64,000 bases of DNA from Escherichia coli (GTDB lineage Bacteria > Pseudomonadota > Gammaproteobacteria > Enterobacterales > Enterobacteriaceae): the NCBI RefSeq assembly GCF_017348835.2, contig NZ_CP071375.1; one strand, given 5' to 3'. The position numbers were made by a program. This document shows, in pieces, positions 1 through 3,000 of this stretch. Position 1 is the stretch's first letter. Every line of letters begins with the position of its first letter.

Positions 1-3000
1 AAGGTGTACGTCAGTTGCCTGCTGAGAGATGTCCTGCGATTGAACGAGCAACAAAAGGTGGTGTCCTGTGTGAAGAACTTCGTCCTGATGTTGATTGGAC
101 ATACTTACGACGCTCGTCATGTTATTCGCAGAATATGTCGATGAAGCAACCAAATGACGAAAACGATCATACCCGAAGCATCAAGAGGCAAATGATTCAT
201 GAAAATCAAACATGAGCACATCCGCATGGCGATGAATGCCTGGGCATATCCTGATGGTGAGAAAGTTCCGGCAGCTGGAATAACCCAGGCTTATTTTGAG
301 TTGGGTATGACGTTCCCAGAACTGTATGACGACAGCCATCCGGAAGCCCTGGCTCGCAATACCCAGAAAATTTTCCGCTGGGTAGAGAAAGACACCCCTG
401 ATGCAGTTGAAAAAATTCAGGCGTTGTTACCAGCGATCGAAAAGGCAATGCCACCTTTGCTGGTGGCCAGAATGCGCAGCCACAGTTCAGCTTATTTTCG
501 GGAGCTGGTGGAGACGCGGGAGCGACTGGTGAGAGACGCTGATGATTTTGTCGCAGTGGCAATCGCCGGTTTCAATCAGATGAACCGTGGTGGCCCGGCA
601 GGAAATGCTGTGGCAGTGCATTGAGTGATAATAGCCATATCGAATCGCTTCCGGCAACTCGTGAGTAAAAAGATTCGGTATCAGAAGAGGTGAGTATGGC
701 TAACGCCTGGCTCAGATTATGGCATGACATGCCAAATGACCCTAAGTGGCGAACAATTGCCAGGGTGTCAGGGCAGCCAATTGCAACAGTGATGGCAGTG
801 TATATCCACCTCCTGGTGAGCGCGTCACGAAATGTCACGCGAGGTCACATTGATGTCACGACAGAAGATTTGGCAAGTGCGCTCGACGTGACAGAAGAGG
901 TAATTGATTCAATTTTGCAGACGATGCAGGGGCGGGTACTTGATGGTGATTTAATCACTGGATGGGAAAAACGCCAGGTGCTTAAAGAGGACAACGGCAA
1001 TATTTCGCAAACCGCAAAATCTCCTGCAGAGCGCAAGAGGGCGCAGCGAGAGAGGGAAAGAAAGCGGGAACAAAATGGCGATTGTCACGGCGCGTCACGA
1101 AATGTCACGCACATGTCACGACGAGTCACGACAGATAAAGATACAGATAAAGATACAGATCAAGAAGATCAAAACACTATGGTCCATGGCGTAAAAAACG
1201 CCACGAACCAGGCAGGGGATGTTCAGACCGTCAACCCTGGTCAGCCAGCAGGCACGACACCGGAAGCCGATTCAGCGTATGCGCTGAAAGCCGATTCGGG
1301 CGCTGTGCAGCAGGTGATGACCGCAAGGCCGGAGCAATCACACCAACTGCAGCAGCCCGAAGCCGATTCCGCCATTCAGCGGGAAGCCGATCGGGTAGTC
1401 CCGGAAAACACCGGGCAGTCTGTGGGACGAGTGGATTATCCGGATGTGTTCGAACAGGTCTGGCGGGAATACCCGTTGCGTGCTGGGGCAAACCCGAAGA
1501 AATCCGCTTTCAGTGCCTGGAAGGCCAGATTACGCGAGGGGGTGCCACCAGAGGCCATACTGGATGGTGTGAGGCGTTACGCAAGATACCTGGCGGCTAC
1601 CGGGAAAACGGGAACGGAATTTGTTCAGCGAGCGACGACGTTTTTTGGGCCGGACCGGAATTTTGAAAACCCCTGGTTGCTCCCGGTAAGCGGCACGAAC
1701 AACCAGCGTTGTGTGAATCATATTTCTGAACCGGATACCGAAATTCCGCCGGGATTCAGGGGGGGATGTGGCATGAAAAACATTGCGGCAGCCGGGGTTC
1801 TTGAACGTATTCGCAGACTTGCACCACAGGCGTCGGTTCCACCGTACCGGACGGTGGAGGAGTGGCGGGAATGGCAACTTGTTGAAGGACGAAAACGCAG
1901 CGAGGAGATTAACCGCCAGAATCACCAGTTGCGGGTGGAAAAAATCCTGAATCGTTCGGGCATCCAGCCTCTGCACAGCAAATGCTCGTTTGCGAATTAT
2001 CAGGTGCAGAACGACGGGCAAAAATACGCGCTGAGCCAGGCCAAATCCATAGCTGACGAACTGATGACCGGGTGCACGAATTTTGTGTTCAGCGGTAAAA
2101 CCGGCACCGGGAAAAATCACCTTGCAGCGGCGATGGGTAACCGGCTGATGGCGAAGGGGCGCAGCGTGATTATTGTCACCGTGTCTGATGTCATGAGCGT
2201 GTTGCATGACAGCTACGACAACGGCAAATCCGGGGAAAAATTTTTACAGGAGCTTTGCAGTGTTGATTTGCTGGTCCTGGATGAAATAGGCGTTCAGCGG
2301 GAGACGAAAAACGAGCAGGTGGTATTACACCAGATAATTGATCGCCGGACAGCATCACTGTGCAGTGTCGGGATGTTAACAAACCTGAATCATGCCGCAA
2401 TGAGTACACTTCTTGGTGAGAGGATTATGGACCGCATGACCATGAACGGTGGTCGATGGGTGACGTTTAACTGGGATAGCTGGCGTCCAAATGTCAGCAA
2501 TATGAGGGTTGTGAAGTAATTTTGTCCGGAGGAAATTTTAATGGAAACCGTATCTGACGCACTGAAAGCACTGAAAAAAGCCTCTTCACATGTGGTGGCA
2601 GCTCGCCTTGGAATCAGTCGTGAAGAGGCTGTCAACGAGCTGTGGGAACTCAAAAGAAATGGCGTCGTTGATAAAACTGGTCACACCTGGTTTCTGGCTG
2701 GCGAAGGTGAATCCCGGGTAACCGAAGAGCGGCCAGTAAAATCTGAAGCACAGGATATGCTGACCGGGGAGGTCGAACAAAAAGTTACCGCAGACATGAT
2801 GATTGAGTTTATCGGTCAGGATGGGGCTAAAACGTGTGAGGAACTGGCGGGTAAGTTCGGTGTCAGTACTCGCAAGGTTGCTTCCACGCTGGCGGTGGTA
2901 ACCGCAACGGGGCGGCTGGCACGCGTTAATCAGAACGGTAAATTTCGTTACTGCATGCCGGGCGATAATTTACCAGCAGAGCCGAAAGCCGCGCTGGTAA

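Follow-up and report, generated by a model that had tools for sequence, protein, structure and literature searches.

A rare, recurrent stop-codon substitution as the probable origin of a 607-aa initiator–helicase loader reading frame in a Rac-type prophage of Escherichia coli

The window analyzed here is a 64,000-nt stretch of Escherichia coli contig NZ_CP071375.1, and it carries a prophage replication module in which an initiator gene with an internal origin, a DnaC-like helicase loader gene, and two flanking genes follow one another on the same strand (Table 1). An uninterrupted + strand ORF runs through the initiator and the loader, from GTG 690 or ATG 696 to a stop at 2517–2519 (609 or 607 aa). 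ATG 696 is the real start, because it is accompanied by GAGGTGA at 687–693 and by the N-terminus MANAWLRLWHDMPNDPKW, which is kept across the family in E. coli, Yersinia, Serratia, and Erwinia. From ATG 696, the ORF comprises 356 initiator codons, three codons of a joint, and 248 loader codons (607 in total). The sequence-only reading had described initiator-like and DnaC-like parts in a single 607-aa frame without an internal stop, and on this the ORF and the domain searches agree. It had left the architecture to a domain search, which recognized both functions; each half is, however, a full-length match to its own separate-gene profile, and the profile lengths (356 and 248) by themselves point to two normal genes. 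Promoter, terminator, and Rfam scans of 696–2519 returned nothing notable except the palindrome of the origin, and an antisense ORF at 1530–2207 (225 aa) was rejected as unsupported.

Table 1. Features of the replication module, numbered from the first nucleotide of the window.
Feature	Position	Strand	Basis
ydaT-like gene, directly upstream	199..624	+	PF06254 YdaT_toxin, E = 7.5e-10
Initiator/replisome organizer, 356 codons	696..1763	+	phrog_3729 match, lengths of relatives, AF2 pLDDT profile
Iteron cluster A: GTCACG at 824, 834, 855; GTCACA at 844; inverted copy at 887–892	824..892	+	Sequence repeats
Iteron cluster B: five GTCACG at 1084, 1094, 1104, 1115, 1125	1084..1130	+	10–11 bp phase
AT-rich 12-mer, three copies (ACAGATAAAGAT), putative DNA-unwinding element	1131..1166	+	Repeat family, GC dip
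Imperfect palindrome flanking the AT-rich stretch, 13-pair stem	1181..1210	.	Stem search
AGGGGGGGA: last Arg-Gly codons of the initiator and Shine–Dalgarno-like site for the loader	1758..1766	+	Anti-SD duplex
GGA codon replacing the ancestral TGA stop	1764..1766	+	Alignment, per-base comparison, junction counts
Spacer TGTGGC, 6 nt, in frame, stop-free, now Cys-Gly	1767..1772	+	Sequence and alignment
DnaC-like helicase loader, 248 aa, own ATG	1773..2519	+	NF009043, 6QEL, PGAP WP_000788759.1 from ATG 1773
DUF1627 (ydaW-like) gene, downstream	2541..3302	+	PF07789, E = 6e-96

The initiator part (aa 1–356) matches phrog_3729, ‘replication initiation protein’, from end to end (1–356/356; E = 1.9e-257), and its relatives span 333–376 aa. 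An AF2 model based on 24 homologs predicts two confident folded domains, one N-terminal (aa 1–127, pLDDT about 90) and one helical and C-terminal (aa 245–330), separated by a disordered linker of 116 residues (aa 128–243) and followed by a disordered tail (aa 334–356) that ends in IPPGFRG. A relation to PF09681 (Phage_rep_org_N) appears distant at best: the score is 12.8 bits against a cutoff of 23.3, though positions 1–118 of the 121-position profile are covered. Scanned by itself against Pfam with E-values of up to 10 allowed, the initiator had sub-threshold matches only, and Foldseek searches of its domains against the PDB gave no match with E < 0.9, the weak ones being mostly winged-helix regulators. 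The DnaT-like ssDNA-binding domain PF17948 was not detected in this initiator. Sister initiators that have other C-terminal halves do contain it.

Nine of the 44 GTCACG copies of the window fall within 307 bp of the initiator gene (824–1130) at a spacing of 10–11 bp, where roughly 0.2 would be expected from the window’s own density. These are the iterons that the sequence-only reading had placed in the N-terminal half, and they are putative binding sites of the initiator. Cluster B is followed by the three ACAGATAAAGAT repeats and then by the imperfect palindrome, with GC content falling to 0.35–0.38 at 1110–1199; by analogy, this layout of an origin within the initiator gene is of the lambda type. 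The acidic stretch DKDTDKDTDQED had been read as a linker between the two functional halves. It is indeed present, but it lies inside the initiator (aa 146–158) and is the translation of the origin’s AT-rich repeats, about 200 residues before the true joint.

The loader part (aa 360–607) matches NF009043 (PRK12377 subfamily) over the whole profile (1–248/248; 504.3 bits against a cutoff of 389) and, over aa 409–578, the IstB_IS21 AAA+ family PF01695 (E = 1.9e-18; 67.3 bits against a cutoff of 24.1). The Walker A and B motifs reported earlier for a C-terminal DnaC/IstB-like ATPase were both located: GKTGTGKN at nt 2094–2117 and LLVLDE at nt 2268–2285, which align with GKPGTGKN and LLVIDE of DnaC in PDB 6QEL (E = 3.4e-72, homology over residues 2–241). 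By homology to DnaC the protein is DnaC-like, and it is predicted to load DnaB. Its score against the DnaC equivalog NF005931 (294.6 bits) is below the cutoff of 357, which indicates a phage paralog rather than the host DnaC. The predicted duplex between the Shine–Dalgarno-like site and the 3′ end of 16S rRNA has an energy of −10.7 kcal/mol for the TGA and GGA alleles and lies 7 nt before the ATG. Because this site and ATG 1773 are intact, independent initiation probably persists in the GGA allele, so that a free 248-aa loader would still be made.

The joint consists of Gly-Cys-Gly (aa 357–359; nt 1764–1772). In an alignment of close relatives, the junction reads AGG GGG GGA TGT GGC ATG in the window and in PE164, and AGG GGG TGA TGT GGC ATG in 88_1577 and RM9154. 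The nearest relative, 88_1577, differs from the window over 696–2519 by one base, T rather than G at 1764. By this comparison, base 1764 is the sole cause of the fusion. In the relatives, the initiator ends with IPPGFRG and a stop, followed by TGTGGC and the loader ATG at 1773; because the 6-nt spacer contains no stop, loss of the initiator stop places both genes in one frame. The sequence-only reading had listed an assembly frameshift as a point to check, and an indel in the G-run (seven vs. six G) was considered; both were set aside, as the alignment contains a T-to-G substitution with unchanged length.

The GGA allele is rare. With an 81-bp query across the junction, 664 complete E. coli genomes gave matches covering 80% or more of the query; the exact 81-bp junction occurs in four of them (PE164, SMN013SH2, OkiPb01679, and War), and the other 660 keep a stop at the junction. 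Among viral contigs, 79 of 80 have TGA (with two spacer variants) and one has GGA, and a pattern search of the whole viral collection found a base other than T at the first stop position in one contig. Thus, TGA stands at the position of 1764–1766 in more than 99% of relatives; the earlier expectation that initiator and loader genes are normally separate holds, and the proposed fused architecture does not, since relatives at the population level have a stop between two genes. In all four GGA genomes, PGAP labels the upstream gene a ‘missing C-terminus’ pseudogene and annotates a 248-aa loader gene separately. Four contigs of other assemblies carry the exact 607-aa protein as a called product, including GCA_910593615.1 and GCA_032490275.1 (the contig of the latter being present in four samples).

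The allele also follows relatedness. The prophages of the window and PE164 are 99.9% identical over 48 kb, and one haplotype is common to the window, PE164, and GCA_032490275. A second haplotype occurs in SMN013SH2 (Idaho) and OkiPb01679 (Okinawa), in both cases within the same prophage remnant at tRNA-Ser/mtfA; in three further strains, this remnant has about one mismatch to SMN013SH2 (4983 vs. 4988 bits), which we take to be a T at the stop site. Judged from this distribution, GGA is a real, recurrent mutation rather than an assembly error.

Searches for a fused family gave a consistent negative. A word-index search of the 607-aa query against 5.8 billion clusters returned no match covering more than 62% of the query, and when 1.84 billion representatives were searched exhaustively with HMMER, the best 150 matches covered aa 1–356 or aa 360–607, never both. 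Two candidates were examined and rejected as fused homologs: P0249 spans the junction, but is a fragment of 198 aa, full of indels, from a Klebsiella-type module, and P0253 is built of four AAA+ modules in tandem that bear no relation to the initiator. By these searches, the fusion is not an evolved or conserved architecture. In clustering at 90%, the fused product chain-links two unrelated families, so that they form a single cluster with 5,786 members.

GGA is present on at least three to four sequence backgrounds. Background A comprises the window, PE164, and GCA_032490275; A′ has four synonymous differences and is carried by GCA_910593615 and viral contig L012; B has 19 differences and is carried by SMN013SH2 and OkiPb01679; and War has a different upstream gene that was already frameshifted. 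With this number of backgrounds, pure neutral drift appears insufficient, and a hotspot, gene conversion, or selection is needed. A mutational hotspot may be involved, by which GGGGG-T is extended to G7 through primer slippage; short-tract gene conversion between co-resident prophages and selection for GGA are also possible causes.

We consider the locus to be a replication module of a Rac-type lambdoid prophage that has undergone a recent, rare, and recurrent stop-loss, rather than an evolved fusion, with a probability of roughly 85%. In the normal state, the 356-aa initiator would attach to the GTCACG iterons within its own gene and melt the neighboring AT-rich repeats; host DnaB, carried by the separate 248-aa loader, would be recruited through the initiator’s C-terminal domain and tail. 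A single T-to-G transversion at 1764 would have converted the initiator stop TGA to GGA (Gly), such that ribosomes starting at ATG 696 would read via Gly-Cys-Gly into the DnaC-like gene and produce a predicted 607-aa initiator–loader protein. The separate loader would still be translated from its intact Shine–Dalgarno-like site and ATG. The initiator, in turn, would exist only with a 251-residue C-terminal extension and without the free IPPGFRG end, and in the fused copy of the loader the N-terminal DnaB-binding region would carry a 359-residue extension. The effect of GGA on phage replication is probably neutral to damaging.

Other lesions in the same prophage occur in three of the four complete-genome carriers. 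As recorded, PE164 has an IS3 inserted in its tape-measure gene, SMN013SH2 and OkiPb01679 have an integrase/ydaS remnant, and War has the frameshifted upstream gene. These lesions fit relaxed selection, weakly so because most prophages of this kind are defective in any case. The tape-measure gene that IS3 splits in PE164 is intact in the window, the prophage of which lacks that IS3 and looks more complete; a label of ‘decaying prophage’ therefore rests on the other carriers and not on this copy.

It is conceivable, but in our estimate unlikely, that the recurrence is driven by selection, whether for a working tethered initiator–loader or for a dominant-negative product that protects the host from prophage replication, or, in a related reading, that the SEPDxxIPPGFRG tail is a DnaB/DnaC-recruiting peptide. 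A functional single-chain initiator–loader, for which tethering is tolerated or advantageous and the repeated appearance of GGA reflects selection, is quite unlikely. The presence of GGA on several haplotypes would fit such a protein, as would the constant position of the initiator tail, always encoded adjoining a DnaC-like gene, which suggests that the two work jointly anyway; the joint falls between the predicted disordered tail and the loader N-terminus, so both folds could survive. Against these points stand an allele frequency below 1%, the failure of the searches described above to find a fused homolog at any divergence, and the near-identity of carriers to their TGA relatives, by which the allele must be very young each time. 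Three of the four complete-genome carriers are, moreover, visibly degraded prophages. The part of DnaC that binds DnaB is its N-terminal region (PDB 6QEL), and the 359-residue extension would block the corresponding part of the loader.

That the genes are really separate and a T next to the G5 run was miscalled as G during sequencing or polishing is very unlikely. The change does lengthen a homopolymer (GGGGGTGA to GGGGGGGA), GGT-to-GGG miscalls are a known systematic error of short reads, and the other junction-spanning database ORF, P0249, is itself riddled with indels. The same allele nevertheless recurs in at least seven further assemblies, made in different laboratories and countries. Prophages of common descent share it (the window with PE164 and GCA_032490275; SMN013SH2 with OkiPb01679), while their close relatives have T; this tracking of relatedness argues against random errors. 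Scarcely credible is a leaky wild-type UGA, by which minor initiator–loader readthrough would be normal and made constitutive by GGA: all four E. coli/Shigella junction types (TGATGTGGC, TGACGTGTC, TAACTGACC, and TAATCAGCC) have a 6-nt, in-frame, stop-free spacer, but common ancestry can explain this shared spacing, Rac and POCJ13 use TAA, a tight stop, and programmed readthrough through an in-frame design was rejected on account of the 2-nt out-of-frame spacers of homologous modules (dnaT–dnaC, Salmonella SPN3UB, and Klebsiella ST974-OXA48phi18.2 and Kp4882-1).

With a stop-loss as the preferred reading, the module itself is ordinary, being already present and annotated in public genomes. The locus is a caution that a long prophage ‘fusion’ ORF may sit one base away from two ordinary genes, which a comparison of close relatives can settle within minutes, and that a chain-linked 90% cluster can mislead annotation transfer. 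Two residual points are worth noting: the same substitution recurs, and the initiator has a conserved tail in common with DnaT. Should the fusion be produced in active form, it would allow a natural test of whether an origin-bound initiator and a helicase loader can act as one chain, and of whether the conserved IPPGFRG C-terminus must be free.

Among the closest known systems, Rac shares the gene order, and the sequence-only reading was right to point to ydaU/ydaV. The order ydaS–ydaT–ydaU–ydaV–ydaW corresponds to ydaS–ydaT–initiator–loader–DUF1627 here; in the PE164 prophage, which is 99.9% identical, the ydaT-like gene bears the PGAP name ‘toxin YdaT family protein’, and racR lies upstream of this module in PE164 and L008. 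YdaV is 80% identical to the loader over 248 aa, and in Rac, too, the stop and the ATG are separated by 6 nt and lie in frame, and the upstream protein has the same IPPGFRG tail. In contrast, YdaU is a DUF1376 protein of 285 aa and the initiator here is a 356-aa phrog_3729 protein; only YdaU 267–285 aligns, to initiator residues 338–356, and the initiator has no DUF1376 match. Rac keeps its TAA stop and is unfused. The closest isolated phages are the Shigella/Stx phages POCJ13 and 75/02 Stx and the Escherichia phages vB_EcoS-683R6/666R9, the loaders of which are 79–84% identical to the one described here. Each has a separate upstream ‘primosomal protein I’ or replication protein that ends in GFRG at the same 6-nt spacing, and all keep the stop codon, so that none is fused.

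In lambda, the origin (ori-lambda) lies inside the O gene and contains repeated iterons and an AT-rich stretch. The module resembles lambda O/P in having its origin in the initiator gene, with direct iterons, next to them an AT-rich stretch, and then a palindrome, and possibly also in that the AT-rich DNA encodes a flexible linker between DNA-binding and partner-binding domains, as suggested by the AF2 model. The likeness is one of layout alone, as Pfam, NCBIfam, and PHROG searches gave no match to the O or P families of lambda. The loader belongs to the DnaC/IstB-type AAA+ ATPases and not to the lambda P type, and the iterons differ from those of lambda in their short 6-bp cores, their 10-bp phase, and their arrangement in two clusters 260 bp apart.

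The chromosomal dnaT–dnaC pair resembles the module in its loader and in the tail. DnaC of E. coli is 48% identical to the loader over its full length, and DnaT ends with VSEPDSQIPPGFRG where the initiator ends with ISEPDTEIPPGFRG, each directly before the MKN of the loader. The DnaT family NF002770 matches only aa 333–356 (E = 0.0028; 17.3 bits against a cutoff of 201), the rest of DnaT having no detectable similarity to the initiator, and the dnaT–dnaC gap is 2 nt and out of frame vs. 6 nt and in frame here. A PxGFRG end directly before a DnaC-like gene is found in DnaT, YdaU, this initiator, the ‘primosomal protein I’ of POCJ13, the SPN3UB replication protein, and two Klebsiella phage proteins, and the longer tail SEPDxxIPPGFRG is common to this initiator, YdaU, other phage organizers, and chromosomal DnaT. 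The tail peptide SEPDTEIPPGFRG could be a candidate motif for DnaB/DnaC recruitment. How DnaT recruits DnaB/DnaC is still unknown according to a 2026 structural paper (PMC13377028); if the tail is the recruiting peptide, the natural fusion, in which the shared end of DnaT and the phage organizers is no longer free, offers a handle for testing this.

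The T-to-G substitution at window position 1764, which converts the TGA stop of the replication initiator to GGA and fuses it with the DnaC-like loader in one 607-aa ORF, recurs on at least three to four differing sequence backgrounds (loci L004, L005, L006, and L008, and the viral contig L012), and the closest relatives of each background retain T. This recurrence may arise because GGGGG-T is a mutational hotspot, because co-resident prophages exchanged the allele by gene conversion, or through selection. In P0249, a 198-aa database protein of a Klebsiella-type module, the GFRG tail is also read on into the loader; that reading passes through indels and the end is out of frame (compare L095, positions 1440-1500), and the entry is probably a low-quality assembly or pseudogene. 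P0249 shows that the G-rich initiator/loader junction is prone to error or mutation. In the 90%-identity protein collection, 356-aa replisome organizers and 248-aa ATP-binding loaders fall into one cluster of 5,786 members (the cluster of window 696-2516), apparently chained via the fused 607-aa sequence; this mixed cluster is a clustering artefact, and could propagate wrong names.

The initiator ends in a tail, S(E/L)PDxxIPPGFRG-COOH, that it has in common with Rac YdaU, with chromosomal DnaT, and with several replication proteins of phages, which show no relatedness outside it; directly downstream of each of these genes lies a DnaC-like gene. Tail codons vary synonymously between loci (CCG/CCA, GGA/GGC/GGT, and GAT/GAC), and these differences point to conservation at the protein level. 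Disorder is predicted for the tail of the initiator (AF2). The tail is a candidate docking peptide for DnaC/DnaB, to which the publications consulted give no role.

Features of the prophage, with window positions
Feature	Position	Basis or detail
Iteron core GTCACG clusters	824-860; 1084-1130	
Imperfect palindrome	1181-1210	12/13-bp arms, TGGTCCATGGCG…CGCCACGAACCA
Initiator tail (aa 334-356)	1695-1763	Also L010 2421-2477, L011 1479-1550 (-), L092-L095 junctions
hok/sok-type toxin-antitoxin	5170-5494	Rfam sok, 113 bits; Hok/Gef ORF
Two phage-borne tRNAs (Ile, Arg)	8752-9004	PGAP
sRNA STnc100	9774-9966	146 bits
Two overlapping ORFs	20775-22139; 22136-23521	
Tape-measure gene, intact	26508-29750	1080 aa
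Cargo of type III secretion effectors (NleG family, EspW, DUF1076 proteins)	~39600-44440	Identity to PE164 annotation

Downstream in the same prophage lie the toxin-antitoxin, tRNA, and sRNA genes. The prophage also has the effector cargo, which adjoins potB. Because the prophage has this cargo, its E. coli is of the attaching-and-effacing type (EPEC/EHEC-like). In the 99.9%-identical prophage of E. coli strain PE164, PGAP annotates a single gene as the counterpart of the overlapping ORFs, with a frameshift and an internal stop, and the tape-measure gene is split by IS3, unlike the window copy.

In the reading frame of the initiator gene, the iteron core encodes Val-Thr (…SRNVTRGHIDVTT…, …SRNVTHMSRRVTT…). 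‘VT’ runs are retained at the same two places in relatives from Yersinia, Rahnella, Serratia, and Erwinia, and the arrangement of an origin inside the gene thus seems, from these sequences, to be conserved across genera. The palindrome lies directly 3' of the AT-rich repeats and, once it is counted, the origin has a lambda-like order: iterons, AT-rich region, palindrome.
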